Positions 4,093-36,998 of a stretch of DNA of 36,998 nt are shown here, one piece after another. The position numbers and the translations under genes are program-made. Source of the stretch: Candidatus Portnoybacteria bacterium CG_4_9_14_3_um_filter_43_11 (GTDB taxonomy: Bacteria > Patescibacteriota > Minisyncoccia > Portnoybacterales > UBA2143). The stretch spans positions 1 through 36,998 of the forward strand of contig PFWG01000009.1 in the NCBI GenBank assembly GCA_002791035.1. Reading direction: 5' to 3'. The stretch's first letter is position 1; each line of letters starts with the position of its first letter. Below the pieces are notes generated by a model. The model did no database searches. It saw nothing but the letters and a program-made list of their open reading frames with translations, and was not told the origin of the DNA.

Positions 4093-4129
4093 TAAATCTC
4101 ATCCCTCGAAATTTTTTCGCGCTTTACCC

Positions 4130-5884
4130 TTATTTCTTTTTCTCGATTTCGTCTTTTATTTTCCCAACAAATTTATTTACTTTTACTGGGCCTAGATCGC
4201 CCTTTTTTCTATCTCGGACGGCGACTAATTTGGCCTTTTGCTCTTTTTCCCCCACAATCAAAAGATAGGGGATTTTTTGCAGTTCTCCGTGGCGGATTTT
4301 CCGGCCTAAGGTTTCGTCGCTGTCGTTTAATTCCGTCCGGATATTTTCTTCTTTTAAGCGCTTGGCAACTTTCTCGGCGTAAGCGTTAAATTTTTGGCTG
4401 ATGGGAATAATCTGGGCTTGGACCGGGGAGAGCCAGACCGGAAAGGCGCCGGCGTAGTGTTCTATCAGAAAAGCCATCGTTCTTTCCAGACAGCCGATTG
4501 ACGAGCGATGAATAGCCATCGGTCTTTTTTTGTTGCCTTTTTCATCAATATAGGTCAGGTCAAATTTTTCGGGCAAATCAAAATCAATTTGGACGGTAAA
4601 GGCGGTCTCTTCTTTGCCGTTGACATTTCTCAATTGAATGTCCAGTTTGGGTCCGTAAAAAGCCGCTTCTCCTTCCGCCTCCGCATATTTGGTTTTTATC
4701 TTATCTAATATCTTTTTCATTTGCGCCTGGGTTTCTTTCCATTCTTTCGGCTTGTTGACATATTTTTTCTTGTCTTTCGGGTCCCACTTGGAGAATCTAT
4801 ACCAGTAGTCGTCAATGCCAAATGTTTTCATAACATATTCTATTAATTCCAAGACCCCTTTAAATTCTTCTTCAACCTGGTCGGGACGGCAAATAATATG
4901 AGCGTCAGCCAAAGAAAAGGCCATTACTCGAATCAGTCCGGATAGTTCTCCTGATTGTTCTTTGCGGTACTGTTTGGCGATTTCGGCGTATCTCAAAGGC
5001 AGTTCGCGATAACTTCTCGGCCGGGAAGCGTAAATCATAAACTGATGCGGACAGGTCATCGGCCGAAGAACATATTCTTCACCGTCAATATTCATCGGCG
5101 GATACATATTGTCTTGGTAGTGCTGCCAATGGCCGGATTTTTTATATAATTCCACTTTGGCCATATCGGGAGTATAGGTTCGCAGATATCCTCTTTTGGT
5201 TTCTTCGTCTGTGATGAACCTTTCCAGCTCCTGTCTGATAATCGCGCCCTTGGGAGTCAATAGCGGAAGTCCCTTGCCGACCAGGTCGGAAAAAACGAAC
5301 AAGTCCAGTTCTTTGCCCAACTTGCGGTGGTCTCTTTTTTCGGCCTCGGCCTGTTGGTTGAGATAATCTTTTAGTTCTTTTTCGGTGGCAAAAGCGACGC
5401 CGTAGACGCGGGTAAGCATTTTGTTTTTTTCGTTTCCCCGCCAGTAAGCGCCGGCGATTTTAGTCAGCTTAAACGCCTTGGGATTGATTTCTTTAGTTAA
5501 TTTGACATGAGGGCCTTTACATAAATTCTCAAACCAATCGGACCGGTAAAAGCTAACCTTTTTTTCACCGGCCTTTTTTAATTCTCTTATCACCTCGCTT
5601 TTATACGGGTCTTTTTTGTAGAGTTTTAGGGCCTCGCTAAAACTCATATTATGCTGTTCAAATCTAATGTTTTGCTTAATTAATTCCTTAATCCGTTTTT
5701 CCAATTTGGGCAGCAGTTCCGGCGAAATCGGTTCCGGCAGGCCGTAATCCTGATAAAAACCGTTTTCTATGGCTGGTCCGACGCCTAAACCTGCTTCAGG
5801 ATATATTTCCATAATCGCCATGCTCATCAGATGAGACAAAGAATGGCGTATTCTTTCTAATTGCGGTTCTTCTTTTTGAGGCAT
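4130..5884 (-). CDS. thrS: Threonyl-tRNA synthetase lacking the N-terminal TGS domain
   Basis: 584 aa. It begins at the editing-domain HxxxH motif (RHSLSHLM). Class II core blocks are present (FYRSDWFENLCKGPH, RPMTCPHQ, ELPLRYAEIAKQYRKEQSGELSGLIRV) together with a C-terminal anticodon-binding domain. Confidence 0.93.
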   Translation of the reverse strand: MPQKEEPQLERIRHSLSHLMSMAIMEIYPEAGLGVGPAIENGFYQDYGLPEPISPELLPKLEKRIKELIKQNIRFEQHNMSFSEALKLYKKDPYKSEVIRELKKAGEKKVSFYRSDWFENLCKGPHVKLTKEINPKAFKLTKIAGAYWRGNEKNKMLTRVYGVAFATEKELKDYLNQQAEAEKRDHRKLGKELDLFVFSDLVGKGLPLLTPKGAIIRQELERFITDEETKRGYLRTYTPDMAKVELYKKSGHWQHYQDNMYPPMNIDGEEYVLRPMTCPHQFMIYASRPRSYRELPLRYAEIAKQYRKEQSGELSGLIRVMAFSLADAHIICRPDQVEEEFKGVLELIEYVMKTFGIDDYWYRFSKWDPKDKKKYVNKPKEWKETQAQMKKILDKIKTKYAEAEGEAAFYGPKLDIQLRNVNGKEETAFTVQIDFDLPEKFDLTYIDEKGNKKRPMAIHRSSIGCLERTMAFLIEHYAGAFPVWLSPVQAQIIPISQKFNAYAEKVAKRLKEENIRTELNDSDETLGRKIRHGELQKIPYLLIVGEKEQKAKLVAVRDRKKGDLGPVKVNKFVGKIKDEIEKKK

Positions 5885-6381: not shown

Positions 6382-9300
6382 CTACTCTAATACCTTAACA
6401 CTCTCGCACAGGATTTTCAAGTTTTCGTCGCGATCGCTCAGCCGCCCGCTGACTAAAACGATTTTGTCTTCTTGCCAGGCCGGCGCGGTCTGCTCTAAGA
6501 CCTTCGGGAAAACAATGGTTTCAAACCGGCCGGTCAGGTCCTCAATTTCAACAAAAAGCATCGGCTGGCCGTTGCGGGTGTTGATTTTTTTTATTCGGTT
6601 GATTATCCCGCCGATTTTTATCCGACGGCCGGACTGATTTCTTGAAATCTGTCGGTAGGAAGTAGTCAGTTTTTCCAGTTTTTTGCGGTATCTCTCCAGC
6701 GGATGCTCGGAGATATAAAGGCCAAGGAGTTCTTTTTCCCAAGCCAGCATTTCATTTTTATTGGCTGGCGCGACTGACGGAAGCGCAAAAGACGGAATGG
6801 CAACATTGGTTTCGGCGCCGAATAAACTGACTTGGCCGCTTTGCCTGGCGCGTTGGGTTTCTCTGGCCAAAGAGAGCATTTGTTCCATGCCGGCCAAGAG
6901 TTGATTTCTTTCTCCAAAGCCGTCCAAAGCGCCGCATTTGACTAAACTTTCCAGCGATTTTTTATTGAGGTCTTTTGACTCTACCCGTTCAATAAAATCA
7001 GCGATTGACTGGTATGGTCCATTGGTCTTTCTTTCGTTGACGATGGCAGAAACGATGTTATGGCCGACATTTTTAACGGCATTAAGGCCGAAACGAATAG
7101 TCATATTGCCGGCTTTGGTAAAGTCGCAGTCGCTTTCGTTGGCGCTGGGGGGCAGGACTTTTATTCCCATTTGTTTGCACTCATCTACCAAAAAGGCGAT
7201 TCGCTCAATGTCGTTTTGCTCGGAAGTCATCAGCGCCGCCATAAACTCGGTTGGAAAATGAGATTTGAGATATGCGGTCTGATAGCCAATAAGGGCGTAG
7301 CAGACAGAATGGGCTTTATTGAATCCATACTGGGCAAATGGTTCAATTGTTTGCCAGATTTTGACGGCGGTTTTTTTCTCCAGCCCATTGGTGACCATGC
7401 CTTCAATCATTTTGTCCTTTTGCTCATCAAGCAGTTTTTTGATTTTCTTGCCGACAGCTTTTCTTAAAACATCGGCTTCGGGCAGGGAAAAACCGGCCAG
7501 GTCTCGGGCAATGCGCATCAATTGTTCTTGATAAACCATTACTCCGTAAGTGTTTTCAAGAATTGGCTTCAGTTTTGGATGGAGATACTCAATTTCTCTC
7601 AGTCCGTGCTTTCGGGCGATAAATTCCGGGATAAATTCTATTGGGCCCGGCCGATACAAGGCGACGAGAGCGACAATATCTTCAAATTTCGTCGGCTTTA
7701 ATTGTTTAAGGCATCTTTTCATACCTCCGCTGTTATGCACAACAAAACCATTGGCAACGAAGTTATTCCCCGGCGCTTTCATGACAATATCATAAGTTGT
7801 TTCTTTTTTGCCCGGTTTGATTTCTTTGACTTCAAGAAATTTAAAGCTTCTTTTAGTAGGAATGATAGGACATTCCCACTTAACTAGGTTTTTGTATTTG
7901 ATGGATAATTCCGCGAATTTTGTGGCGCTAATTAAAACGAAATTATATTGAGGGTATTGTTTTTGGAATAATTCCATCTTTTTTTGGTCCAACTCATGAA
8001 GCCATCCCTTAATTTCGTAGAAAGTGTTGGTATTCTTGACATAAAAGTCCGGAGTATAGTGAAGAGTTTCGCCACCGCTATTTTTTAATTCGAATGTTTT
8101 TGATTCGTATTCATATTCAACTTTATAGAGATTTAAAATTCTGGCAAAATCGGCTTCCCAATTAGAACGGACATAATGACCTAAATCTTTCCGGTACCCC
8201 CCTTTTCTATGCGGGGACTTTCTGCCAAACATTGGATTATTTTCTCCTCTAAATCTTTCGGATAATTTCTTTTTTATTTCCTTTGACTTCTTTATTCCGT
8301 AGAAGTCATCAAATGTTCTTCCTAATAAGGCCTTAGAAATTTTCTGACCGGTGTGTTGTAAAATTAAACTGGTTTCTTTTGTGAGTCCTTGATTCCATGG
8401 AGTTCCTCCTTTTTCATAAAATATCTTTCTGGCCCTAGAAATTTTTTCTCTTGATTTTGGTTTACTTGGATTTCTATAAAAAGTGGCGGAGCATTTGTAA
8501 CAGAAATTACTTTTTCCTTCTTTTTGTCCGCTTATTTGTTTCCTGCAACTTTGGCAAGTGTTATAAACTAAGTGTTTTGCTTTTGATTTTATTAAAATTT
8601 TTTCACCCTCTTTGATATCTTTTAATTGTTTCCATCCATTTTCGGTGAGAAAATAATGATCCGGCGTTGCTTTGATGTACCAATTATTTTCTGCTACTAA
8701 AATGAGGGTTTCTTTCTTGCCGGCGCAGCAAACATCAATAATTTGATTTTTGTGTATCGCGCCTTCGTCTAAGTAAACTGATTCCAATGCCTTTTTGTCT
8801 TTTCGCTTATATAACCCTTTAATCGTAGTGTTAGAAACTATAGTGTCTCCAGATAGACATTCCAATTGAAACACGCCGACGCTATTAGATTGCTGGAGCA
8901 GATGAAAAGTTTTCTTGTCATTAAGGGGGATGTTGTTGATTTCAGCTTCCTGGCCGGACAGTTCCCTAATTTGATTAAGGGTGTTTTGGATAACAGTCAA
9001 GGTTTTTAGGCCTAAAAAATCCATTTTTAGCAGGCCGAGGTCCTCAATGGCGTGCATTTCATATTGAGTGACAACGCTTTCATTATCCTGAGTCGGGTGC
9101 TGGCAGGGGACGGACTTGTCTAGTGGTTCTTTAGTGATGACGACGCCGGCGGCATGAGTAGAAGCGTGGCGGGCGACCCCTTCCAGCTTTTTAGCCATAT
9201 CAATCAGTCGCTTGGTGTTTTCATCCGATTCATAGGCATTATGGAGTTCCTGTGAATCGTTGACAGCGTTTTCCAAAGTAGAACCGAAAGGAATCATTTT

Positions 9301-9738
9301 TGCTACTTGGTCGCAAAAAGCATAGGAATATTCCATTGCCCGACCGACATCGCGGACCGCGGCTCTAGCGGCCATTGTCCCAAAAGTGATAATTTGAGCA
9401 ACATGGTCATGGCCGTATTTTTGCCGGACATAATCAATAACTTCGTCGCGCCGGTCATCGGCAAAATCCAGGTCAATATCCGGCGGAGAGATTCGTGTGC
9501 TTTCAATCTTTTTACGAGGGTTGAATTTGCCTTGAGGCAGTTGAGATGTTATTCCGAGGGCAAACGCGACAAAGCTGTTAATATCGTTTTTATCTCCCTG
9601 TTTTTTCTGTAGATAAAGATTGTGGAAATCATCAATTAACCCGAATTTTTCTATTTGCTCCAATTCAAAACCTAATCTCTTTTGGTCAAGATCTGTTCTT
9701 TGCCGACAAACTTCTTTTAATTCTTCAAATTTTCCCAT
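6382..9738 (-). CDS. dnaE: DNA polymerase III alpha subunit, C-terminal fragment (palm/thumb/fingers/OB), containing an intein
   Basis: Canonical DnaE resumes at NPRKKIESTRISPPDIDLDFADDRRDEVIDYV. Further blocks are HASTHAAGVVI, LLKMDFLGLKTL, VGVFQLE[intein]SGGM, ALYRPGP, YGVMVYQEQ, FNKAHSVCYA and a C-terminal OB region. Confidence 0.9.
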   Translation of the reverse strand: MGKFEELKEVCRQRTDLDQKRLGFELEQIEKFGLIDDFHNLYLQKKQGDKNDINSFVAFALGITSQLPQGKFNPRKKIESTRISPPDIDLDFADDRRDEVIDYVRQKYGHDHVAQIITFGTMAARAAVRDVGRAMEYSYAFCDQVAKMIPFGSTLENAVNDSQELHNAYESDENTKRLIDMAKKLEGVARHASTHAAGVVITKEPLDKSVPCQHPTQDNESVVTQYEMHAIEDLGLLKMDFLGLKTLTVIQNTLNQIRELSGQEAEINNIPLNDKKTFHLLQQSNSVGVFQLECLSGDTIVSNTTIKGLYKRKDKKALESVYLDEGAIHKNQIIDVCCAGKKETLILVAENNWYIKATPDHYFLTENGWKQLKDIKEGEKILIKSKAKHLVYNTCQSCRKQISGQKEGKSNFCYKCSATFYRNPSKPKSREKISRARKIFYEKGGTPWNQGLTKETSLILQHTGQKISKALLGRTFDDFYGIKKSKEIKKKLSERFRGENNPMFGRKSPHRKGGYRKDLGHYVRSNWEADFARILNLYKVEYEYESKTFELKNSGGETLHYTPDFYVKNTNTFYEIKGWLHELDQKKMELFQKQYPQYNFVLISATKFAELSIKYKNLVKWECPIIPTKRSFKFLEVKEIKPGKKETTYDIVMKAPGNNFVANGFVVHNSGGMKRCLKQLKPTKFEDIVALVALYRPGPIEFIPEFIARKHGLREIEYLHPKLKPILENTYGVMVYQEQLMRIARDLAGFSLPEADVLRKAVGKKIKKLLDEQKDKMIEGMVTNGLEKKTAVKIWQTIEPFAQYGFNKAHSVCYALIGYQTAYLKSHFPTEFMAALMTSEQNDIERIAFLVDECKQMGIKVLPPSANESDCDFTKAGNMTIRFGLNAVKNVGHNIVSAIVNERKTNGPYQSIADFIERVESKDLNKKSLESLVKCGALDGFGERNQLLAGMEQMLSLARETQRARQSGQVSLFGAETNVAIPSFALPSVAPANKNEMLAWEKELLGLYISEHPLERYRKKLEKLTTSYRQISRNQSGRRIKIGGIINRIKKINTRNGQPMLFVEIEDLTGRFETIVFPKVLEQTAPAWQEDKIVLVSGRLSDRDENLKILCESVKVLE
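7732..8859 (-). mobile_element. Intein (376 aa) inserted in the DnaE GVFQLE|SGGM motif
   Basis: Block A is CLSGDTIV, with Cys1 at codon 8857-8859. Block B is TPDH. Blocks F/G are TYDIVMKAPGNNFVANGFVVHN followed by +1 Ser, with Asn at codon 7732-7734. Removing it restores the conserved FQLESGGM. The segment is visibly more AT-rich than flanking dnaE. Confidence 0.85.
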
Positions 9739-10696
9739 GATAGAAATTCTTTACGAAGATATATTTACGTTTGAGAAAATAATTTGAGTTACGATAAAGA
9801 TAATCGACGAATTTTTTGACATCTTCCTTGCGAAAAAGGCGCAGTTGATAACTTCCTTTGCCGCCGCCCCTGTCGTCAAATCTTATTTTATGAAAAGTTA
9901 TCTTTAACTGTTTTTCTAACATACTCTTGATTTCTTTGGAAAATTGATAAGAAGCAGAGGACAAAGCGGAACAAAGATAGATATATCTGTTACTTTCCCG
10001 TTTATCTAAATAGAAGCTTCCGTCGCCGTCGTACATTCCTCGCAAAAAGTGTCTTATTAATTTTTCCGGAATTAAGGGAATGGATAATTCTTTCCAGCTT
10101 TTTCTCGGCATTACGCCCAAATTAATTAATGAATTACGCAAATTTTGGTTACTGATTATTAAACAAAAATAATTTTTGTATTGATGGATGGGGCTAGTCG
10201 TCTCTAACAGTTTTCTACAGGTTTCAATCATATCTCTGTCATTTGAGGAGATATTAATGTGATTGCTTTTACTGGAAACACTGCCGTCGGAAAAAATTAT
10301 TCCTAAAAGGTAGGCCTTGCCTTCAGAATCAATTTTATCAAAAAATTTTTCATTAACTTTGTAGGCCCTACTTTTTATATTACATTGATTGCTGCAAAAA
10401 ATTTGATGAGGATTTCTAGATCTATATCCGAATACAGATTTACAGGTCGGACAAATTTTATCGTCGCGATTATATTTACGACGCGCCTTTGATGAGCATT
10501 TTTCGCCGCAATATTTTCGATTGCGAGTTTCTCTTTTATTTACAAACTCTTCGTTGCATTGAAGGCAAATTTTTTGGTAGGCCGCATTTTTTCGGAAACT
10601 ATTATAACAAGCAAGGGAACAAAAGCGGGCGGCAGATTCTCGATAATTGTGTATATAAAACTCTTTTGAGCAGGACTGGCAGATTTTTTTAATCAT
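9725..10696 (-). CDS. Free-standing double-motif LAGLIDADG homing endonuclease with three N-terminal CxxC...FCxxxC zinc modules
   Basis: LAGLIDADG motifs are [13 protein letters not shown] and [14 protein letters not shown]. The N-terminus has three CxxC-x15/16-CxxxC repeats. The ATG at 10696 overlaps the stop of the upstream dnaE fragment. The stop lies 14 nt inside the downstream dnaE fragment. The frame differs from both dnaE fragments. Confidence 0.85.
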
Positions 10697-11909
10697 GAAT
10701 TCCAAAATCCTCTTTATTCAAAAAGTATGTTTCTTTAACACTCAAGAATCTTTCAAAGAGCAAATCATATTTTAGCGGGTCAATGTCGGTAATGTTCAAA
10801 AGATGGGAAACAATGGAGCCGGCGGCGCTTCCTCGGCCCGGGCCGCAGACAATGCCGTTGGACTTGGCCCAGTTGATGAAATCGGCGACGATAAGAAAAT
10901 ACGAGGCGAAACCGGTTTTGGCAATAACTTTCAATTCGTAGTCCAGTCGTTCCAGAACTTTTTCTATCGGGCTGTCAAATTGGCGCTTCTTCAGCCCCTC
11001 CAGGCAAAGTTTTTTGATGTAGTCGTCGGGTGCTTCGCCGGTTGGAACCTCAAACGAAGGTAGCTGGATTTTGCCCAGTTCAAACTCAAAATTGCACGCT
11101 TGAACGATTTTTTGAGTGTTGGCTATCGCTTCGGGGATATGCTTGAAATCCTGAATCATTCTTTCCGTCGACCGAAGGGAAAAATCGTCGTCTTTCATCG
11201 TCAGCCGCCGCTGATCGTCCACTTTTTTGTCGGTCTGAATACTCATCAAGACATCTTGAGCTTCGGCGTCTTCGGGTCTGATGTAGTGAACGTCGTTGGT
11301 GGCGACCAAGGGGATGCCGCATTTTCTTGCCAGTTCAATCATGGCTTTATTGACCGGTTCCTGGCTGGACAGGCCGGGGTGGTGTTGGATTTCAAGGTAA
11401 AAATTTTCCGGACCGAAGATTTTTTGGTATTCCCGGGCGGCTTCCTCCGCTTCCTTTATTTTGCCGGCGGCAATTTTTTTAGGAACTTCGCCGGAAAGGC
11501 AAGCAGTCAGGGCGATCAGACCCTGGCTATGTTTTTTTAGGAGTTCTTTGTCTATGCGCGGCTTGTAATAAAAGCCGTCCAAATACGCCTTGGTGGTCAA
11601 TTTGACCAAATTGCGGTAACCAGTGTCGTTTTTGACTAAAAGAACAAGATGATTGAGTTTGTTGTCAATTCCCGGTTGGCGGTCAGCCATAGTTCGGGGA
11701 GCGAGATACATTTCGCTGCCGATAATGGGACGGATACCTCTTTTTTTGGCCTTCTGATAAAACTCGACTACGCCATACATAGAGCCATGGTCGGTTAAGG
11801 CGATGGAAGACATCTTCAACTCCTGGCACATATCCAAAATCTGGTCTATTTTAGCCAACCCGTCTAACAGAGAGTAATGAGAGTGAACATGTAAATGAGT
11901 GAATTTCAT
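10689..11909 (-). CDS. dnaE: DNA polymerase III alpha subunit, N-terminal fragment (PHP domain to ...FERFL)
   Basis: Contains the PHP motif [15 protein letters not shown], then [38 protein letters not shown] and [34 protein letters not shown]. This is followed by 17 non-DnaE residues and a stop. Confidence 0.9.
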
Positions 11910-17602: not shown

Positions 17603-18526
17603 CTAGGATTTTGCCAAGTCAGAAAATAAGGTTTTAAGCCCGGCGGTATTTAACCAATAATTCTTTGGATTTTTCTTTAAGTATTTTTTGATTTCTTTTC
17701 TTTGTGTTTTTAGTTTATCGCCAGCCCTGCTGTTGGATATGAGTATATTTGAATAACTGCCGTCTAAAAAAGAGATGTAGGAAATATTTGGAGTTTTTTC
17801 CTTGAGATTTAATATTTCAATTAGTTCTGAAATCTGCTTATCTTGTCCGCCGCCGGAGGTGTTAAGATGTTTTGCTTCTATTAAAAATATCTTATTTTTA
17901 TACCTAATAATCAGGTCTAATTTTTTACCTTGCTTTTTGGCTTTAAGTTTAACTTTTAAATTTTCTTTGACTTTTTTAACGCTGAAAACCTTGGAAAATT
18001 GAGCAACGCATTTGTTTGATTTATTAAATTCTTCCCAAGTTTTAACTTCTTTAAAACCCAATTTCTTTAATATCAAGGTTAGTTTTAATTCGCCGCATTT
18101 TCCTTTCTTGCGAGAGGAATTAGAATCTATTATTGCCTGAATCCATTCTTCGGGGACGAGGTCTCTTAACAATCTTTTAGAAAAGTATCTCCGGGTAATT
18201 TTCTTTATTAAGTCCAAATCTTTTCTGACCGCGCCCAAGGTATTATCGCAGGCGTTAACGAAACAGATAAATTCGGAGCAGTTGGAAAATTCCGATAATG
18301 ATTTTTGCAATTCTTCAAAATACTTGTTGATTATTTTTGGATTTTCTTTTTTCTTTTGAAGAGTTTTAATGGTAGTTAAAATTTCCTTGATCTCTTTTGT
18401 ATTTTTGACATATTTTTTCAGATTAGGATTTTTATTGTCAAAAATATAAAAATTATCCAAAGAAGTTTCTGGATTTTCCTGCGATACTTTAAAGTAATGT
18501 TGATTGTTTTGAATGTTTTTGCTCAT
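17603..18526 (-). CDS. Putative type II restriction endonuclease (PD-(D/E)XK-like)
   Basis: It overlaps and follows the methyltransferase gene. The candidate catalytic pattern is GEL...KKLDLIIRYKNKIFLIEAKH (D...ExK). The gene is very AT-rich and lysine-rich. Confidence 0.55.
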   Translation of the reverse strand: MSKNIQNNQHYFKVSQENPETSLDNFYIFDNKNPNLKKYVKNTKEIKEILTTIKTLQKKKENPKIINKYFEELQKSLSEFSNCSEFICFVNACDNTLGAVRKDLDLIKKITRRYFSKRLLRDLVPEEWIQAIIDSNSSRKKGKCGELKLTLILKKLGFKEVKTWEEFNKSNKCVAQFSKVFSVKKVKENLKVKLKAKKQGKKLDLIIRYKNKIFLIEAKHLNTSGGGQDKQISELIEILNLKEKTPNISYISFLDGSYSNILISNSRAGDKLKTQRKEIKKYLKKNPKNYWLNTAGLKTLFSDLAKS

Positions 18527-19628
18527 AGAGATAATTCAAAAATTTATAGGTAAAATCAAACGAAATTCTTTTGCGGCCGTTATCGCGGAAATTAGTGAGA
18601 AAAAATGAAAAATATTTTTTTCTGTTTTGGTTTAACTTCTGGTTGAATTCCTGTATTAGTTTTTCCTGCTCTTCCACGGGAATTCCCTGGCCGAAAATTA
18701 TATGGGCCATATTTCGAGAAGTATTTTTACCAACAAGCCCTAAAATATTATATCTTCTTATATCTTCAAGTTGTATCTTTTTTCCGTTCTTGCTGTCAAT
18801 GGCTCTTAAGAGCAAGATATTTCTTTCTAAAATATTTCTAACATTTCCATGGATATTATAATTTCTTATTTCCTTTATATTTTGAAACGCCATTTTAGCT
18901 CCATAACTTCCAGATTTCAGAAAATCTTCAGTCAGGCGGAAAATTTCTAAATAATTTTTAGCGCTTTTTATCTGATTAATAAAATTGCCGCCTAACTGCC
19001 AGCCGAATTTTCTTTCTATAGCAAAATTGATTTTTTCTTTTTCTGGGAATATGGCAGCTGATATTTTGTTTTTACCATCAAATCCTTTTTTCTTCTTGTA
19101 ATAAAAAGAAATTACATTATAGGTCGTATCTTTAAAAACTTGTTGGGAAAAAACATTTAACTTAATAATCTTAAACTTTTCAAAAAATAGGTTCCTGATT
19201 TTTTTTGAATTTTCGGCGCAAAGAAAATTTAGAGGAACAATTAAAATTCCTTCTTCGGAATCAAGAATTGAATAGATAGAAACTTGATATAGGTCTTCGA
19301 AAAAGGAGTGTGTGCCGGAAAAGAAATTATCTTTTGTTTTTCCATCGGCTTTATTCTTATGCAGATATGGCGGATTGGTTAAAACAAATTTATATTTCTT
19401 CGGAGAATTGATAGAGTCGTTGTAAAAAACCTTTTTGTTGTCGGTATATTTTTTATCACAGTCAAAGCCGGTGATTTTTTTACATTTATTTTTGCTAGCC
19501 CAACTAAACAAATCCTGATTTCCGGCGAATGGATCAGTAATTTCTTTATTCTTTACGAATGATTCTAGCCCTTGGAGAATATAGTCGGAATTTGTAGTAA
19601 AGAATTGTCCGAGTTGGGCTTTGGTCAT
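18489..19628 (-). CDS. N6-adenine DNA methyltransferase (gamma-type motif order)
   Basis: The motif order is LGQFFTT (motif X-like), then DPFAGNQDL (motif I), then LTNPPY (motif IV). Confidence 0.85.
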   Translation of the reverse strand: MTKAQLGQFFTTNSDYILQGLESFVKNKEITDPFAGNQDLFSWASKNKCKKITGFDCDKKYTDNKKVFYNDSINSPKKYKFVLTNPPYLHKNKADGKTKDNFFSGTHSFFEDLYQVSIYSILDSEEGILIVPLNFLCAENSKKIRNLFFEKFKIIKLNVFSQQVFKDTTYNVISFYYKKKKGFDGKNKISAAIFPEKEKINFAIERKFGWQLGGNFINQIKSAKNYLEIFRLTEDFLKSGSYGAKMAFQNIKEIRNYNIHGNVRNILERNILLLRAIDSKNGKKIQLEDIRRYNILGLVGKNTSRNMAHIIFGQGIPVEEQEKLIQEFNQKLNQNRKKYFSFFLTNFRDNGRKRISFDFTYKFLNYLYEQKHSKQSTLL

Positions 19629-19634
19629 ATCTTT

Positions 19635-19640
19635 ATTATA
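19635..19640 (-). promoter_or_regulatory. Candidate -10 box (TATAAT) 6 nt upstream of the methyltransferase ATG
   Basis: The minus strand reads ctagTATAATaaagatATGacc, with no room for an SD sequence. Confidence 0.4.
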
Positions 19641-19664
19641 CTAGAAAATAGAAATTTTGATAAG

Positions 19665-19692
19665 AAAAAACCGATGCATTAGATCGGTTTTT
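19665..19692. terminator. Bidirectional intrinsic terminator-like hairpin
   Basis: AAAAAA-CCGAT-gcattag-ATCGG-TTTTT lies between the 19715-20251 ORF and the R-M operon. Confidence 0.6.
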
Positions 19693-19714
19693 CTACTTTT
19701 GTTTTAATGGGATG

Positions 19715-20251
19715 TCAATGTTTGTGATTTGCTATAACTTTTCTGAAATCTTTTTTTAATTGTTTTTTTATATTTGGTAATTTGTTTTCGATTTCTTGAA
19801 ATGCTTTATTCCATTGTTGAAAGGAAGTATCTTGGTCTTTTATTGATTGCGACATAATTGATGCTTCTAGATTGCTTAAAATTTGAAGCGAACTATCAAT
19901 AAAAGAATGAATCATTAAAACTGAACTTTTGTCTAGAATTATTTCTTTCTCCCAAAAATAATCTTGTAGACCGAAAAATTTTGTTTTTATCAAGGGGAAT
20001 TCATTTATTTTTTCAGATAAAGATCCCTGATTGGTCTTTGCGCCAATTGTTCTGCTATATTTTTTAAAATCTTTCTCAAGAGCAACGATCTTGCTGTATA
20101 TTTCTTCCAAATAAACAAGTTTTCTATCAAAGATTTTTTCAAATGTATATCTTCTTTGAGAAAAGTAGTATGTCAGAACTGCGGTTAAGAGAATACCAAG
20201 TAATGAGATAACGCTTTGTATAAAACTTGGACCAGATAAGAAATCTTTCAT
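19715..20251 (-). CDS. Hypothetical membrane-anchored coiled-coil protein
   Basis: One N-terminal TM segment (VISLLGILLTAVLTYYF) and a helical remainder. The gene is AT-rich. I recognise no family. Confidence 0.5.
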   Translation of the reverse strand: MKDFLSGPSFIQSVISLLGILLTAVLTYYFSQRRYTFEKIFDRKLVYLEEIYSKIVALEKDFKKYSRTIGAKTNQGSLSEKINEFPLIKTKFFGLQDYFWEKEIILDKSSVLMIHSFIDSSLQILSNLEASIMSQSIKDQDTSFQQWNKAFQEIENKLPNIKKQLKKDFRKVIANHKH

Positions 20252-20300
20252 AGATTGTGTCGTAGAACAAATAACAATACTTTATCTAAATGTGGATATT

Positions 20301-20376
20301 TGGCGGGGACGATGGGAATCGAACCCACGATCTCCTGCGTGACAGGCAGGCGCTTTAACCGCTAAGCTACGCCCCC
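20301..20376 (-). tRNA. tRNA-Asp (GUC), CCA encoded
   Basis: The reverse complement folds as GGGGGCG-UA-GCUU..AAGC-G-CCUGC-CUGUCAC-GCAGG-AGAUC-GUGGG-UUCGAUU-CCCAU-CGUCCCC-G-CCA. The anticodon is GUC. Confidence 0.9.
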
Positions 20377-20380
20377 AAAG

Positions 20381-20454
20381 TAGCGGCGACAGGATTCGAA
20401 CCTGTGACATCGGGCTTATGAGTCCCGCGCTCTAACCAACTGAGCTACGCCGCC
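20381..20454 (-). tRNA. tRNA with CAU anticodon (elongator Met or Ile2), no encoded CCA
   Basis: The reverse complement folds as GGCGGCG-UA-GCUC..GAGC-G-CGGGA-CUCAUAA-GCCCG-AUGUC-ACAGG-UUCGAAU-CCUGU-CGCCGCU-A. It has a G1-U72 wobble and an A31/G39 mismatch. Confidence 0.8.
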
Positions 20455-20455
20455 A

Positions 20456-21145
20456 TCATTTTATTTTTAAATTAGATATTCCTTCAATCCAGCCGTCTAT
20501 TTTTCTTCTTAGTCGAGTTCCTTTCCGGACTTTTATTCTTAGGGTTCCAAAATGTTCGTTATAGTTTTCGTAAATTTTTTTTGTTTCTGTCTTTTTTAAA
20601 CTTGGTTTATTGAACTGCGATAGGGGAATCTCCGTAAGATCGGACCAATATTTTTCTACTTCCTTTACTCTTTTTTTATGAATCTTGTTAATTCCCACTC
20701 TAAGAGAAAACCTATCGATGCTTATTTTGCAACAATTTTTGAACCATTCGAGCATAAAAAGAATCATTTTCGGATCTGAATTAGTAAATCCAACGTCATA
20801 ATTAGACGGAGCAGTATATCCTTCACTCCAATACATTGCTATTCCAGCAACAAGTAAATCTCTTTTATTAAGTTTATCGATTTCTTTAATGCCCTCTTTT
20901 CTTAATAACTCTACTTCCGTTTGTCTTTTTTGTCTTATTTTTTCTACCGCCCTTAATCTTCCTTCGTAACTTCCGGATATTTGTTTTTCCACTAATCGTT
21001 TAATCTGAGTATGCGAAAGTGGTATATCTCTACACCATACGCTAACAGTGCCCTTAGAGATATTTATCTTTTGAGCAATTTCATTGATACTCAATCCTCT
21101 TTTGCGTAACTTTTGCGCTTTAGTCTGTTCCTCTATCTTCGCCAT
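20456..21145 (-). CDS. HTH domain protein with a LAGLIDADG-like C-terminal domain (putative free-standing homing endonuclease or maturase-like)
   Basis: The N-terminal HTH is RGLSINEIAQKINISKGTVSVW. LLVAGIAMYWSEGY resembles a single LAGLIDADG motif. The gene is AT-rich and sandwiched between tRNA genes. Confidence 0.5.
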   Translation of the reverse strand: MAKIEEQTKAQKLRKRGLSINEIAQKINISKGTVSVWCRDIPLSHTQIKRLVEKQISGSYEGRLRAVEKIRQKRQTEVELLRKEGIKEIDKLNKRDLLVAGIAMYWSEGYTAPSNYDVGFTNSDPKMILFMLEWFKNCCKISIDRFSLRVGINKIHKKRVKEVEKYWSDLTEIPLSQFNKPSLKKTETKKIYENYNEHFGTLRIKVRKGTRLRRKIDGWIEGISNLKIK

Positions 21146-21197: not shown

Positions 21198-21235
21198 TTT
21201 ATCAACCGTTAAATTGCGGAGAACTTTGATACTTG

Positions 21236-21515
21236 TTGCGGGGGTCGGATTCGAACCGACGACCTCGAGGTTCTTAATATTAGCCATTTGTTGCCAAATG
21301 GAATGGACTGTCCCATTCTCTCGCTAATTTAACGAGAGATTCCCATTACAGTCTCTGAACCTTTCCCGTAGTTAATACGGGACTTGGCTGCTGATTGTCG
21401 TAAATATATCTTTACGAGTTCCCAGCAAGTTCGGGAATTTTTCCGCAGAATGTCGCCATCCTGGGCCACAATCATTTTATGGGCCTCGCGAGCTGCCAGA
21501 CTGCTCTACCCCGCG
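21236..21515 (-). tRNA. Initiator tRNA-fMet (CAU) gene interrupted by a group I intron; exons 21479-21515 and 21236-21272
   Basis: The joined exons give CGCGGGG-UA-GAGC-AGUCUGGCA-GCUC-G-CGAGG-CCCAUAA-CCUCG-AGGUC-GUCGG-UUCGAAU-CCGAC-CCCCGCA-A (74 nt). This is nearly colinear with E. coli tRNA-fMet, including the C1xA72 mismatch. Confidence 0.85.
21273..21478 (-). ncRNA. Group I intron (206 nt, no ORF) inserted after the CAU anticodon
   Basis: The 5' exon ends in U and can pair as CCAU with the internal guide GUGG 9 nt into the intron, giving a U-G wobble at the splice site. The intron ends in G. Core-like strings CAAUCAGCAGCCAAGUCCCG and GGUUCAGAGACUGUAAUGGGAA resemble the conserved P/Q and J8/7-P7 regions of tRNA group I introns. 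Size and insertion site resemble the Azoarcus tRNA-Ile intron. Confidence 0.75.
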
Positions 21516-34171: not shown

Positions 34172-35650
34172 ATGTCCAATTATCAGCCAGTGATTGGCTT
34201 GGAAATCCATAGTGAGTTGAAAACGCAGAGTAAAATGTTCTGCGATTGTTTGAATCAGTCGGGAATAAAAGGGCCCAACGTCAATATTTGTCCGATTTGT
34301 TTGGGGCATCCCGGGACTTTGCCGGCGATAAACAGAACCGCGGTTGAATTAGTCGTCAAAGCCGGCCTGGCGCTGAACTGCGCGATTGCCAAGTCGGCCA
34401 AGTTTGACCGGAAAAACTATTTTTATCCCGATTTACCCAAGGGTTACCAGATATCCCAGTATAATTTGCCGCTGGCGCTGGGCGGCTGGTTGGATATCAA
34501 CGGCAAAAAAATCCGGCTGACCCGGATTCATTTGGAAGAAGACGCCGGCAAACTGATTCATCCCAAAGGGACGAGTCCCAAAAACGCCAGACATTCTTTA
34601 GTTGACTTCAACCGCGCCGGCGTTCCTTTGATGGAACTGGTTACCGAACCCGATATTTCTTCCGGCGAAGAAGCCGGAAAATTCTGCGAAGAATTGCAAT
34701 TGATTTTGCGCTATTTGGAAATTTCCGAAGCCAATATGGAAAAAGGGCAAATGCGGTGCGAAGTCAATATCTCCCTTCGGCCAGCCGAGGAAAAAAAGAA
34801 ACTCGGGACGAAAGTTGAAATTAAAAATCTTAACTCTTTCCGCGCTGTCCGGCGGGCGATTGAATACGAAATCAAGCGGCAATCGGACTTATTGGAATCG
34901 GTGCATAAGGTTGTTCATGAGACCAGGGGATGGGACGAAGACAAGCAAAAGACGTTTTCCCAGAGAAGCAAAGAGCAGGCGCAGGACTACCGCTATTTTC
35001 CCGAGCCGGATTTGCCGCCATTGGGCAATCTGGTCGAGATGAGCGGCGAACTGGCAAAAGAAATTCCGGAACTGCCGCTAGCCAAAAGAGAAAGGTTTGT
35101 CGAGGAATACAAATTGCCAGTTAACGACATCGCCACGCTGACGGCCAACAAGGGCCTAGCCGATTACTTTGAGCAGGTAGTTTCAGAACTGGACACTTGG
35201 CTCAAGATTAAGTCAATTAAAGACAAGGATAAGTTGGTTAAATTGACCGCCAACTATCTTTTAACCGAGCTGCAAAAATTAATGCTGTCGCGCAAAACCG
35301 GCATCAACAAATGCCAGATCAGCCCGGAAAATTTTGCCGAGTTTATTACCATGATTGAACGAAAAGAGATTTCCAGCTCGGCGGCGCAAGCGGTTTTGAA
35401 AGAAATGTTTGACACCGGCGCCGACCCGTCTCATGTGGTGGAGGAAAAGCAGTTGACGCAGGTAAGCGGTAGAGACGAGTTGAGCAAAATAGTCAAACGG
35501 GTTGTCGGCGAAAACCAAAAATCGGTCAATGACTACAAAGCCGGCAAGGGAAACGCCCTGCAGTATTTAGTCGGCCAAACAATGAAGGCCAGTCAAGGGA
35601 AAGCCAATCCGGAAGTCGTCCGCGAAATATTAATGGAGATGCTGAGATAG
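34172..35650 (+). CDS. gatB: Glu/Asp-tRNA amidotransferase subunit B
   Basis: Contains VIGLEIHSELKTQSKMFC, CPICLGHPGTLP, FDRKNYFYPDLPKGYQISQY, HLEEDAGK, RCEVNISLR, a YqeY-like tail and LVGQTMKASQGKANP. Confidence 0.95.
   Translation: MSNYQPVIGLEIHSELKTQSKMFCDCLNQSGIKGPNVNICPICLGHPGTLPAINRTAVELVVKAGLALNCAIAKSAKFDRKNYFYPDLPKGYQISQYNLPLALGGWLDINGKKIRLTRIHLEEDAGKLIHPKGTSPKNARHSLVDFNRAGVPLMELVTEPDISSGEEAGKFCEELQLILRYLEISEANMEKGQMRCEVNISLRPAEEKKKLGTKVEIKNLNSFRAVRRAIEYEIKRQSDLLESVHKVVHETRGWDEDKQKTFSQRSKEQAQDYRYFPEPDLPPLGNLVEMSGELAKEIPELPLAKRERFVEEYKLPVNDIATLTANKGLADYFEQVVSELDTWLKIKSIKDKDKLVKLTANYLLTELQKLMLSRKTGINKCQISPENFAEFITMIERKEISSSAAQAVLKEMFDTGADPSHVVEEKQLTQVSGRDELSKIVKRVVGENQKSVNDYKAGKGNALQYLVGQTMKASQGKANPEVVREILMEMLR
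35610..35650. repeat. 41-nt perfect direct repeat, left copy (3' end of gatB including its stop)
   Basis: CGGAAGTCGTCCGCGAAATATTAATGGAGATGCTGAGATAG is identical to 36530-36570. Confidence 0.95.
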
Positions 35651-35732
35651 CAGGGCGTGGGAACAGAAATATTAAAAGAAAGGACAGAAGCAATTGTCAA
35701 AAAAGGCGATACAGTTCAAGATACTGTTTTTT

Positions 35733-35752
35733 GCCGGAAGAACTTTTCCGGC
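35733..35752 (+). terminator. 7-bp GC-rich hairpin downstream of gatB (weak terminator candidate)
   Basis: GCCGGAA-gaactt-TTCCGGC is followed only by a weak T-rich stretch. Confidence 0.35.
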
Positions 35753-35762
35753 CATAATTTTC

Positions 35763-35792
35763 TTGACAGGACAAAATCAGTTGTGCTATTCT
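35763..35792 (+). promoter_or_regulatory. Candidate promoter of the secreted-protein cassette (TTGACA ... TGcTATTCT)
   Basis: TTGACA is at 35763-35768, the spacer is 18 nt, and an extended -10 box TGCTATTCT ends at 35792. A strong SD AGGAGG lies 6-7 nt before the ATG at 35871. Confidence 0.45.
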
Positions 35793-35870
35793 TTATGGGT
35801 TAGTTGGCAGAAGCTTGTAGTACCTTTCAAAAATTCAAAAAAGCAGAGGCAAAACTAAAAGGAGGAAAAG

Positions 35871-36452
35871 ATGAAAAAGAGTTTATTGTTTGTTTTTTTT
35901 ACAATCGCTGTTCTGGTTATGTTGGCAGTTACAAGCACGGTTTTCGCTCAATGTACCACAATCCAAGACGGAACGCTTTTAACCTCAGATGGGCGTACCA
36001 TTGTAACTGGCTATGATGAATGGGGCTATAATTATCAAGCCCACATTTTCAACGGAAAATACTGCGATGCCTATCGCGACGCCAGTTGGTGCCAGGGATG
36101 GGCAGACGACGACCTTGAAATGAAGTGGAATGACGCCTGGTTAAGCAACAAGGATTGCGATGGCGATAACCTACTGGACCGGCACTATGGCTTTGATTCA
36201 TATATCGGTTCGGGCGCCTGGCTGACCAACCATCAAAAGGGCGTCTATTTGGATGCCAATGGCAAAAAGCAAAGATGGAGCTATTTTGTCAAAATCGTGG
36301 CAATTCCGGCAGATGGAACTGAGATTGGCCCTGTTATTTGGGGAGAATTTGCTATCATCCAGGAGGTTTACAATGATACCGGCACTGGTGAACATGGGAT
36401 ATTGTATTTAAGCCCATATGGCGCCGGCTTCGGCAGGTTCAGTCCTCATTAA
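35871..36452 (+). CDS. Secreted hypothetical protein (signal peptide, Trp/Asp-rich, 4 Cys in the mature part)
   Basis: The signal peptide is MKKSLLFVFFTIAVLVMLAVTSTVFA|Q. The gene has a strong SD and its own terminator. I recognise no family. Confidence 0.7.
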   Translation: MKKSLLFVFFTIAVLVMLAVTSTVFAQCTTIQDGTLLTSDGRTIVTGYDEWGYNYQAHIFNGKYCDAYRDASWCQGWADDDLEMKWNDAWLSNKDCDGDNLLDRHYGFDSYIGSGAWLTNHQKGVYLDANGKKQRWSYFVKIVAIPADGTEIGPVIWGEFAIIQEVYNDTGTGEHGILYLSPYGAGFGRFSPH

Positions 36453-36480
36453 AAAAAGAAGGAAGAAATTCCAAAAAAAC

Positions 36481-36517
36481 AAAGGCAGGGTCATTATAGT
36501 CCTGCCTTTTTCATTTT
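36481..36517 (+). terminator. Intrinsic terminator of the secreted-protein gene
   Basis: AAAGGCAGG-gtcattatagt-CCTGCCTTT is followed by TTCATTTT. Confidence 0.7.
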
Positions 36518-36529
36518 AAAAACTTCTAA

Positions 36530-36570
36530 CGGAAGTCGTCCGCGAAATATTAATGGAGATGCTGAGATAG
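36530..36570. repeat. 41-nt perfect direct repeat, right copy (contains the stop and last codons of miaA on the minus strand)
   Basis: Identical to 35610-35650. The miaA stop codon (36550-36552, minus strand) lies inside it. Confidence 0.95.
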
Positions 36571-36998
36571 TAGTTTTACGGCTTGAGAGTAGTTTTTCAC
36601 CCAGTGGATCCTCTTATCCCGCTTGAACCAAGTCATTTGGCGGCGGGCGTATTGAAGAGTGTGAAGAGAAATCAGTTCTCTGGTTTTTTCCAGAGTTGTT
36701 TTTTTGTCTAAATAAAAAATAATTTCTTTATAACCGATGCCGCTCATTGCGGGAAGATTGGCGCTATATCTTTCTAATAATTTTCCGACTTCTTTAACCA
36801 GTCCTGCTTCAAACATTTTTTCCGTTCTGCCGGTAATTCCTTTTTTAATTTCATCCAAGCCAACTTTTAGGCCGATCTGTAAGGCGTCAAACATCGGCCG
36901 GCCTTTTTTTCTTTGCTCGGAAAACGGCTTTTTGGTCAAAAGACAGACCTCCAGGGCGCGGACGAGCCGCCGCTGGTTATTTTGGTCAATTTTTTGGG
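36550..36998 (-). CDS. miaA: tRNA dimethylallyltransferase, C-terminal part (5' end beyond the window)
   Basis: The reading frame is open to the window edge (…QRRLVRALEVCLLTKKPFSE…), with GIGYKEII and TLQYARRQMTWFKRD typical of MiaA. The ORF-track M at 36939 is an internal TTG. Confidence 0.85.
   Translation of the reverse strand, partial: QKIDQNNQRRLVRALEVCLLTKKPFSEQRKKGRPMFDALQIGLKVGLDEIKKGITGRTEKMFEAGLVKEVGKLLERYSANLPAMSGIGYKEIIFYLDKKTTLEKTRELISLHTLQYARRQMTWFKRDKRIHWVKNYSQAVKLLSQHLH

Follow-up and report, generated by a model that had tools for sequence, protein, structure and literature searches.

A single-gene insert between duplicated ends of gatB and a miaB-miaA fusion gene in a Candidatus Portnoybacteria genome

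Comparison with an insert-free relative shows that, in a population of Candidatus Portnoybacteria, 876 bp of foreign DNA lies between two convergent genes, gatB and miaBA, and that 44 nt of the target have been duplicated in such a way that the ends of both genes are intact. As read from its sequence, the insert is one complete transcription unit, comprising a promoter-like site, an SD, a gene for a signal-peptide protein, and a terminator. On balance, we favor the view that this was a case of "insertion with long target duplication," in which host or trans-acting functions joined the incoming DNA to the chromosome. Below, "the window" is the whole stretch of DNA that was analyzed (36,998 nt).

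The duplicated target and the empty site

The 41-mer CGGAAGTCGTCCGCGAAATATTAATGGAGATGCTGAGATAG occurs in two exact copies, at 35610-35650 and 36530-36570 (0 matches in 100 shuffles), as a sequence-only reading of this DNA had reported, and is the sole direct repeat of at least 24 nt within 6 kb across the full window. That reading placed the repeat length at 41 nt, with 879 bp between the copies, but the duplication in fact extends over 44 nt (35610-35653 and 36530-36573) with a single mismatch at 36571. We therefore take the insert to be the 876 bp at 35654-36529, with a 3-nt ambiguity in its bounds. The outgroup contig L187 reads ...GATAG-CAG-TTTT at the end of the repeat, so that CAG is ancestral there, and by the same comparison the TAG of the right copy is a later, synonymous leucine change in miaA. 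In the strain variants L190 to L193, the two 44-mers are identical (44/44). The features of the locus are as follows.

34172-35650, + strand: gatB, 492 aa, intact (open reading frame; Pfam GatB_N, 1.3e-115, and GatB_Yqey, 9e-41, with the match reaching residue 491 of 492)
35610-35653, no strand: duplicated 44-nt target, left copy (41 exactly repeated nt followed by CAG; 43/44 match to the single copy in the empty site of L187)
35654-36529, + strand: inserted DNA, 876 bp (absent from L187/L188 and 80 GTDB relatives; 43% GC versus 48% in the flanks)
35654-35753, + strand: left end of the insert (100 nt), non-coding, where two hairpins resemble terminators, at about 35710-35731 and at 35733-35752 (terminator-like site at 35733-35752; fold)
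35763-35792, + strand: putative sigma-70-type promoter-like site, TTGACA-18 nt-TG-n-TATTCT (consensus match, 10/12, with extended -10 TG)
35797-35870, + strand: 5' leader that is conserved and includes AGGAGG at 35860-35865 (nucleotide similarity to the independent contexts L101/L118 and L110 from about 35795-35798)
35871-36452, + strand: cargo gene, 193 aa, with a signal-peptide-like N-terminal helix (…VFA/QC) and a conserved Cys/Trp-rich, beta-rich domain (open reading frame)
36481-36519, no strand: terminator hairpin with upstream A-run and downstream T-run, bidirectional (fold z-scores, -3.8 on the + strand and -3.5 on the - strand)
36530-36573, no strand: duplicated 44-nt target, right copy (repeat comparison and strain variants)
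36550-36998, - strand: 3' part of a gene for a 625-aa MiaB-MiaA fusion, truncated where the window stops (Pfam IPPT, 2.4e-28, reaching the last position of the profile)

The left copy of the repeat holds the last 13 codons and the stop of gatB, in keeping with the earlier identification of that gene. Its partner had been taken for a plain miaA and turns out to be the C-terminal IPPT part of a MiaB (UPF0004 plus Radical_SAM)-MiaA fusion, which is complete, with all three domains, at 10680-12557 of contig L001. Positions 36550-36573 of the right copy make up the final 7 codons and the stop of this miaBA gene, and because the stop lies at 36550-36552, collapsing the two copies into one gives a gatB/miaBA overlap of 21 nt. 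The rest of the right copy (36530-36549) no longer has a coding role but still matches the left copy base for base. Given that these 20 bases have not decayed, and that the copies differ at 0 to 1 of 44 nt (versus about 4.5% between the window and L187/L188), the insertion is recent. The repeat belongs to the coding parts of gatB and miaBA; it is neither a tRNA nor a dispersed element, and it occurs twice within the window.

Contigs L187 and L188, which were found via the gatB variant P0127, are a true empty site. They have the 44-mer only once (43/44) and lack the insert, and their gatB and miaA genes overlap by 21 nt; the sequence-only reading had predicted an overlap of about 20 nt for the collapsed locus. 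Their alignment to the collapsed window is gap-free at 95.5% nucleotide identity over 1,924 nt, and the GatB proteins are 97% identical. Overlaps of 21 to 24 nt are also present in at least 10 distant relatives (L023, L026, L027, L032, L034, L038, L040, L046, L051, and L080), and the cargo gene was found in none of 80 GTDB relatives. The gatB/miaA junction is itself variable among relatives and houses unrelated small genes, and no recombinase-bearing element was seen at this junction in the 80. The possibility, raised in the sequence-only reading, that all relatives share the occupied arrangement is removed by L187/L188. The variants P0002, P0004, and P0006 led to the known miaBA context only. 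An exact search of JGI metagenome contigs for the empty junction (5 + 41 + 5 nt), conducted with the TAG variant only and hence blind to CAG-type or diverged sites, gave no match; neither a circular junction nor an empty site was seen in the same population.

The occupied arrangement is present in more than 25 independent contigs, including 19/19 spanning contigs (MEGAHIT k141, SPAdes, JGI, and NCBI) together with L190, L193, L195, and L196. Because these assemblies agree, the arrangement is not a mis-join at k of 41 or less; an assembly artefact, which the sequence-only reading had listed as a danger, can be set aside.

The cargo and its relatives in other contexts

All of the parts that the sequence-only reading had assigned to a self-sufficient unit (hairpin, promoter-like site, strong SD, one secreted-protein gene, and terminator) are present, and, as it also stated, the unit has no integrase or transposase; we found none in the insert and none in the 37-kb window. 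The SD, AGGAGG, lies 5 nt ahead of the ATG at 35871. The terminator hairpin proper spans 36481-36509 and, judging by its predicted fold, can end transcription of the cargo gene as well as of the convergent miaBA. The roughly 220 nt upstream of the cargo gene contain hairpins and the promoter-like site only. A 48-aa open reading frame had no match in Pfam, and a search of Rfam with the non-coding parts of the insert returned no family. There are no terminal inverted repeats at the insert ends. The window also contains a restriction-modification (RM) island (DpnII-like, 17.6 kb), which has no flanking long repeats.

The cargo protein has 3,976 homologues, with identities of 65 to 79% across phyla, including matches in Brocadiaceae, Deltaproteobacteria, and Syntrophales. 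By sequence comparison, the family is highly conserved and patchily distributed across phyla. The protein had no match in Pfam, NCBIfam, PHROG, or the PDB sequence profile, and an AlphaFold2 model (pLDDT, 67) had no Foldseek match in PDB; domain, profile, and structure searches revealed neither a nuclease nor a methyltransferase domain. No member of the family is present among 2.9 million viral contigs or among 50,697 phage records, and the one plasmid match, at 42% identity, is to a gene carried by a plasmid of the archaeon Halanaeroarchaeum.

The cassette core recurs in contig L124 at 99.7% identity (2 mismatches in 705 nt), with an ankyrin-repeat gene upstream in place of gatB. In L191 and L194, a third upstream sequence meets the cassette at this point too (within 4 nt, at 35754-35757), immediately 5' of the -35 element. 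As L124, L191, and L194 all diverge from the window at 35754-35757, the leftmost 100 nt of the insert are not common to the other contexts of the cassette. Contigs L192 and L123 begin at this same breakpoint, which suggests a branch in the assembly graph. On the right, similarity to the independent copy L110 (82%) runs out at 36527, which is 2 nt short of where the insert ends. Other family pairs share about 90 to 150 nt upstream and 5 to 75 nt downstream of the gene, with the shared DNA ending right after the terminator. No donor sequence came to light, the nearest DNA being 75 to 82% identical, and no microhomology is evident at the junctions of the insert in the window.

Locus-specific direct repeats of 35 to 178 nt bracket family genes in 6 of 45 non-redundant contexts, compared with 0 of 241 CPR open reading frames and 3 of 87 matched positions (p≈0.04 for the latter comparison). 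These repeats are mutually unrelated in sequence, and the inserts at family loci elsewhere frequently have a lower GC content than their hosts. Nothing consistent was found among nine loci in the way of a terminal motif or microhomology at the insert ends. Proof that the repeats derive from the target exists for the window only. Several individual loci turned out to be something else. L172, a candidate integron array, has as its recurring element a motif that resembles a promoter and lies immediately ahead of ordinary genes; the control match in L029 reflects a motif common to the upstream regions of nusG and rplK and is not an insertion; and the repeats in L105 are not the template and variable repeats of a DGR-like system, given that their mismatches are not adenine-specific. 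At L156, a GC-rich locus, the genes neighboring the family member encode a fucosidase and a GH97 protein, and one open reading frame there is spurious.

How the insert may have arrived

As the empty site shows, gatB and miaB-miaA were convergent, with 21 nt of coding DNA in common, in an ancestor from which this Candidatus Portnoybacteria population recently descended. In the history that we favor, the ends of an incoming fragment (or opened circle) would then have been attached to the chromosome at two positions separated by 44 nt and lying on opposite strands or on sister duplexes, either through staggered breaks with fill-in or through template switching during replication. The agent would have been a host or trans-acting function rather than an enzyme encoded by the element. 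Selection would have acted as a filter: with two conserved genes overlapping by 21 nt, only a duplication that covers the full overlap would keep both intact. Subsequently, the bidirectional terminator would separate two transcription units that formerly collided, and the cargo was probably kept because its secreted protein is useful. The two 44-mers may now permit excision by homologous recombination, as well as re-entry into the empty sites of relatives. Some points weigh against this history, among them the negative exact search for an empty junction in the same population (TAG variant only). The joining mechanism is deduced from the product, there being no donor sequence in which to check the junctions for microhomology; moreover, random illegitimate joining does not predict coincident breakpoints, such as those of three contexts within 4 nt at 35754-35757 and of a right end within 2 nt of that of L110. 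The converse order of events, in which the lineage of L187 lost the cassette by repeat-mediated deletion and the lineage of the window did not gain it, is far less parsimonious, as the 80 cassette-free relatives favor gain.

The coincident breakpoints would be expected if the promoter-ORF-terminator unit (about 35754-36529, or some 775 bp) were a defined, recombinase-less mobile cassette with discrete ends, moved by a trans-acting or host function that makes long and variable staggered cuts, with 35654-35753 as a passenger or a separate event. We regard this as possible, albeit doubtful. The near-identical core in the other context of L124, the shared left breakpoint, the place at which similarity to L110 ends, and the ending of shared DNA after the terminator in family pairs all argue for such a cassette, as do the repeats around family genes and the GC-poor inserts. 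However, the subfamilies have no end motif in common, terminal inverted repeats are absent, and the window's own left boundary (35654) lies 100 nt outside the shared breakpoint. Enrichment of the repeats over the matched control reaches only p≈0.04, some of them (L106 and L118; compare L029 and L172) are probably regulatory motifs, and part of the "repeat" in L105 lies in a unit shared with L107 and so may not be derived from the target; only in the window has this derivation been shown.

A Campbell-type event seems unlikely to us as the origin of the arrangement. Here, a small circle with the cassette and one 44-mer, derived from a related strain, would have crossed into the resident 44-mer. 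A single circle-chromosome crossover yields exactly repeat-insert-repeat, an identity of 44 nt is near the minimum for RecA-dependent exchange, and such crossovers would account for spread and fixation within the population. Nevertheless, the first repeat-insert-repeat would still need another route, considering the 80 relatives without the cassette, and neither a circular junction nor an empty site was seen in the same population in the exact search described above (TAG variant only).

Still less probable is that the 44-mers are the attL and attR of a larger, integrase-bearing island, site specific for the gatB/miaBA junction, that later deletions reduced to a single cargo gene (a CIME-like remnant). 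Repeats of tens of base pairs that rebuild the 3' end of a gene are typical of integration by tyrosine recombinases, and convergent-gene junctions are tolerated sites, the gatB/miaA junction being variable among relatives. Against this, the 876 bp contain neither an integrase fragment nor any other coding remnant, the window at large has no integrase, the same minimal insert is found in all sampled strains, and the target is not a tRNA. Moreover, at family loci elsewhere single genes are inserted between repeats that differ widely in both length and sequence, unlike the work of one site-specific enzyme.

Finally, a short repeat on either side of a gene can turn out to be a promoter motif, examples being L029 (nusG/rplK) and L172, but we give virtually no credence to an assembly artefact or an old fixed repeat unrelated to insertion, inasmuch as k=141 and SPAdes assemblies of many samples concur, the repeat is coding sequence and not a promoter, and a 95.5%-identical relative has the empty site.

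Relation to known systems and significance

The sequence-only reading considered the mode of insertion uncharacterised. This is not wholly so: it matches "insertion with long target duplication," as described by Nobusato, Uchiyama, Ohashi & Kobayashi (2000, Gene 259:99) and by Furuta, Abe & Kobayashi (2010, NAR 38:2428, PMC2853133), a process whose mechanism is still unexplained. In the published cases, the cargo is always an RM system, RM genes having been a screening criterion of the survey, and the favored hypothesis combines DNA breakage by the RM system with a repeat-driven cycle of amplification; the examples from H. influenzae include 46-bp repeats that overlap gene 3' ends (PMC2853133). 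Held against the criteria of Furuta et al., the window has repeats of more than 30 bp (44 nt) flanking the insert, a repeat that is single copy in an insert-free relative (L187/L188), an insert that is shorter than 20 kb (876 bp) and free of transposase, integrase, and prophage genes, and a repeat that is neither tRNA or att sequence nor dispersed (two occurrences in the window). RM genes are missing from the cargo, which makes this the same insertion mode with a different class of cargo. The likeness extends to the lack of a mobility gene, the difference in GC content between insert and host, and the overlap of the repeat with the 3' end of a neighboring gene. The window differs in that its cargo is a single predicted secreted protein without a nuclease signature, its host belongs to the CPR/Patescibacteria, and its target includes 21 nt of overlapping convergent genes, where the duplication would also be required for the survival of both.

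Other systems are further removed. Long and variable target duplications are known from IS1549 and IS1634 (IS1634 family), and in this respect the 44 nt seen here, as well as the 35 to 178 nt around family genes elsewhere (where the target origin is putative), are similar; however, these insertion sequences have a DDE transposase and terminal inverted repeats, and the insert has neither. Classical DDE transposons, with their inverted repeats and fixed duplications of 2 to 14 bp, are likewise unlike it. CIMEs at gene 3' ends also have repeats that regenerate the target 3' end and lack a recombination module of their own, but the insert is a single gene with no nearby integrase and no remnants, and the repeats at family loci are unrelated to one another, which argues against one shared att core. 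Neither the insert, the window, nor the junctions in the 80 relatives contain the recombinase or related full element expected of a site-specific integrative element. Like integron gene cassettes, the insert is a compact single-gene unit of about 0.8 to 0.9 kb found in many contexts. Its 3' hairpin, however, has the GC stem and T-run of a Rho-independent terminator and does not look like an attC site, it has its own promoter-like site, and the window has no IntI or attI; furthermore, integron recombination does not produce a duplicated target such as flanks this insert. Phage morons are similar as autonomous promoter-gene-terminator units between two genes, but the insert is not in a prophage, and the cargo family was not seen among viral contigs or phage records.

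The comparisons above make the locus a clean, non-restriction-enzyme case of the published insertion class. The class has been known since 2000, to our knowledge its mechanism has never been worked out, and few mobile elements are known from the CPR/Patescibacteria. Because the cargo cannot plausibly cut DNA, and because the host group has so few known mobile elements, we would argue that the process is host driven and general. It is also conceivable, if rather doubtful, that the cargo gene with its promoter and terminator (about 0.75 to 0.9 kb) is a minimal mobile element of an undescribed kind, one that has no recombinase and discrete ends (5' of the -35 element and 3' of the terminator), moves across distant phyla, including CPR, and generates its long and variable target duplications (35 to 178 nt) through host or trans-acting activity. 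Were this true, genes in general could become mobile by insertion with long target duplication, independently of RM systems.

With an occupied site, a 95.5%-identical empty site, junctions resolved to the base on both sides, and a duplication of 44 nt that is perfect in some strains, the locus is a clean natural example of insertion with long target duplication. The near-identical cassette in other contexts of the same aquifer, along with the repeats around other family members, offers a concrete system for studying the mechanism. More broadly, the locus shows a route by which foreign genes can enter streamlined genomes even where the ends of conserved genes overlap, leaving those genes undamaged.

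The gatB-miaA junction and its empty site

An exact 41-mer occurs in only two copies, at 35610-35650 and 36530-36570 (0 of 100 shuffles matched this), as the sequence-only reading had reported. The match extends to 44 nt with a single mismatch at 36571, and when the whole 36,998-nt window was scanned, no other direct repeat of 24 nt or longer turned up within 6 kb. The left copy contains the last 13 codons and stop of gatB, and the right copy the final codons and stop (36550-36552) of a minus-strand gene. The latter had been called miaA; it is not a plain miaA, for its IPPT part closes a 625-aa MiaB-MiaA fusion that is complete in longer contigs. Several relatives have such a fusion too (tblastn gave single segments in L027, L030, L031 and L041; also L189), and miaB and miaA are separate genes in others.

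Features of the junction
34172-35650: gatB, 492 aa; both GatB Pfam domains reach the last residue
between the repeat copies: two terminator-like hairpins
35763-35792: promoter-like site, TTGACA-18-TGnTATTCT
35860-35865: AGGAGG
35871-36452: cargo ORF, 193 aa
36481-36509: strong hairpin terminator, A-run upstream and T-run downstream
36550-36998, minus strand: 3' part of the miaB-miaA fusion; the full gene (625 aa with UPF0004, Radical_SAM and IPPT) is in contig L001 (10680-12557)

All of the parts previously ascribed to the cassette (hairpin, promoter-like site, Shine-Dalgarno sequence, single gene and terminator) were located. The terminator hairpin folds well on both strands (z of -3.8 and -3.5), and the insert has 43% GC versus 48% in its surroundings. 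No terminal inverted repeats of the insert were found, and a search of it against Rfam families gave no match.

The convergent arrangement of gatB and miaA(-miaB) is conserved among 80 species-level relatives (gatB 53 to 72% identical), none of which has the cargo gene; in at least 10 of the 80 the two genes overlap by 21 to 24 nt, and others have spacers of 0.2 to 1.7 kb. Across the junctions of L021-L100, overlaps that range from 4 to 59 nt and, in other relatives, spacers of 0.2 to 5 kb, mostly holding unrelated small ORFs (e.g., GIY-YIG-like in L048, 4993-5277, and a receiver domain in L067, 7935-8330), mark this junction as a variable spot; no long repeats were found there. A protein search showed an identity gap between the window species (97 to 100%) and all else (75% or less). 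Comparing the junction among relatives, as had been suggested, revealed a single-copy empty site in a 97% gatB variant (P0127). The two short contigs that carry it, L187 and L188, come from two samples; on them gatB (567-2045) shares exactly 21 nt with the convergent gene (from 2025) and there is no insert, in accord with the overlap of about 20 nt predicted for the window once one repeat and the insert are removed. The window so edited in silico aligns with L187 at 95.5% over 1,924 nt, gapless. The L187 junction reads CCAATC, the 41-mer with one G/A difference, CAG and TTTTACGG, from which it follows that the duplicated target is 44 nt (rather than the 41 nt of the exact pair) and that the insert spans 876 bp, 35654-36529. 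The cassette is a horizontally acquired single-gene unit whose insertion duplicated 44 nt of the target.

The T at 36571 arose later, as a synonymous substitution; the two 44-mers are still identical in L190-L193. Since the 20 right-copy bases that are now non-coding (36530-36549) are undecayed in every contig, the insertion is younger than the divergence of ca. 4.5% from the L187 lineage.

Elsewhere in the window, the dnaE region (DNA polymerase III alpha; 6382-11909, minus strand) is broken into three ORFs with PHP/NTPase, LAGLIDADG_3 endonuclease, and Intein_splicing plus NUMOD3/endonuclease modules, which suggests inteins or homing endonucleases. A second region (17603-21145, minus strand) comprises a DpnII/Tsp45I-like restriction endonuclease ORF (17603-18526), then three ORFs that match no Pfam family, together with a weak HTH protein; tRNA-like sequences (20303-20417 and 21235-21272) adjoin it, and no long direct repeats flanking it were found.

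The cargo family and its surroundings

The N-terminus of the cargo protein resembles a signal peptide, and its conserved domain is rich in Cys and Trp and chiefly beta; the protein matched nothing in Pfam, NCBIfam, PHROG, PDB sequences or PDB folds. Databases hold 3,976 relatives, the best 120 of which (65 to 79% identity) lie on contigs named Brocadiaceae, Wunengus, Deltaproteobacteria and Syntrophales; the family is absent from viral collections. The window copy lacks an ~11-residue segment (consensus ADATLxGGxWYA) found in nearly all other members (alignments A1/A2), and every invariant residue is retained. In the closest non-Portnoybacteria copies (L118, ~3895-3940, and the L110 equivalent), an SD-ATG and then a short Trp-rich ORF stand in the leader that precedes the conserved 5' UTR; the L118 peptide (MWTWLSWQKPVVP) is not conserved in L110 or the window.

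Locus-specific direct repeats bracket the family gene in 6 of 45 non-redundant contexts. As controls, ORFs of similar size in CPR loci gave 0 of 241 (Fisher P = 1e-5) and positions matched in the same loci gave 3 of 87 (P = 0.04), two of these three being one tandem-paralogue event.

Bracketing repeats
L156: 178 nt, 98.9% identity
L175: 125 nt, 94% identity
L105: 87 nt, 92% identity
L136: 46 nt, 96% identity
L106: 64 nt, 86% identity
L150: 35 nt, 94% identity

In no case did an inverted match in these flanks exceed 43 bits. The neighbours of these genes are housekeeping genes, and several of the inserts are GC poor relative to their host. The repeats of L106 and L118 are likely regulatory motifs, and a portion of the L105 repeat lies within the unit common to L107; target origin of the repeat is proven solely for the window.

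Clear cases of regulatory-motif repeats are L029 and L172. In L029, a Parcubacteria relative, a 34-nt motif (94% identical; 1513-1546 and 2124-2157) lies upstream of nusG and again upstream of rplK, and the two probably share it as a promoter or regulatory element. L172 (1-8185) has ten small genes that run in one direction, one of them a family member (3983-4588), with a conserved motif (CAAAAAGTCGAAAAATTAATTGAGAAATAAAAT) before each, and a 99-nt hairpin element common to two intergenic regions (1022-1120 and 4701-4799); an integron array was rejected here, the recurring motif being read as promoter type.

Mode of insertion and spread

Furuta, Abe, and Kobayashi (2010; PMC2853133), after Nobusato et al. 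(2000), described a class termed "insertion with long target duplication," in which units without mobility genes are flanked by repeats of >30 bp that are single copy in a related genome and sometimes overlap a neighbour's 3' end. The class has so far been found for restriction-modification systems; its authors suggest dependence on a shared property of these, double-strand breakage for instance, and put forward an amplification cycle driven by the repeats (PMC2853133). The window event has every structural feature of the class and differs in its cargo, a secreted-type protein. The earlier suggestion of an uncharacterised insertion mechanism thus does not wholly hold: the mode matches a published category, and its mechanism we can only infer. 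IS1549 and IS1634 likewise make duplications, of 8 to 514 bp, but they do so with a transposase and inverted repeats, both absent from the insert.

One possibility, kept open by coincident breakpoints, is a defined mobile gene unit that lacks a recombinase. Contig L124 (1-1899, JGI Ga0210049_1070792) differs from 35754-36458 at 2 of 705 nt (99.7% identity), ends 6 nt past the cargo stop codon and has an ankyrin-repeat ORF (427-987) upstream in gatB's place; it is a second genomic context of the cassette core in the same ecosystem. L191 (1-69) and L194 (1-89) have a third upstream sequence, with the normal miaBA context downstream, and join at the equivalent of 35757, within 4 nt of the L124 break; their upstream ORF (ending in LQYLVDKLTPEKSNMLWTDTFS) stops at a TGA within the -35 TTGACA. 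Other contigs start at the same break, which is what a branch in the assembly graph would give. Against the independent copy L110 (82%), similarity ends at 36527, 2 nt short of the insert boundary; in other family pairs the common part is no more than the gene with ~90 to 150 nt upstream and 5 to 75 nt downstream; and the repeat-flanked family contexts also hint at such a unit. However, neither a common end motif nor microhomology was found at the insert ends. An integrase-bearing element reduced to a remnant is unlikely, with no integrase or transposase gene in the insert, an absence already noted from the sequence, or in the 37-kb window. Least of all does assembly artefact survive: both repeat copies, 920 nt apart, are present in 19 of 19 spanning contigs (from many samples, assembled by MEGAHIT k141 or SPAdes or taken from JGI and NCBI) and in additional strain variants, which rules out the mis-join at the repeat that had been raised as a concern. 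The host is a Candidatus Portnoybacteria bacterium of Crystal Geyser-type groundwater.

Two-ended illegitimate joining is the best-supported account. Host or trans functions would join both ends of the incoming unit illegitimately, with staggered breaks or template switching at points 44 nt apart yielding the duplicated target, and only events that left both overlapping genes intact would pass the filter. Later, homologous recombination mediated by the repeats may have spread the unit within the species. More widely, the archaeon Halanaeroarchaeum sulfurireducens has a 42%-identical homologue on a plasmid of 124 kb (NZ_CP008875.1, 103330-103941), which indicates that the cargo family crosses domains.
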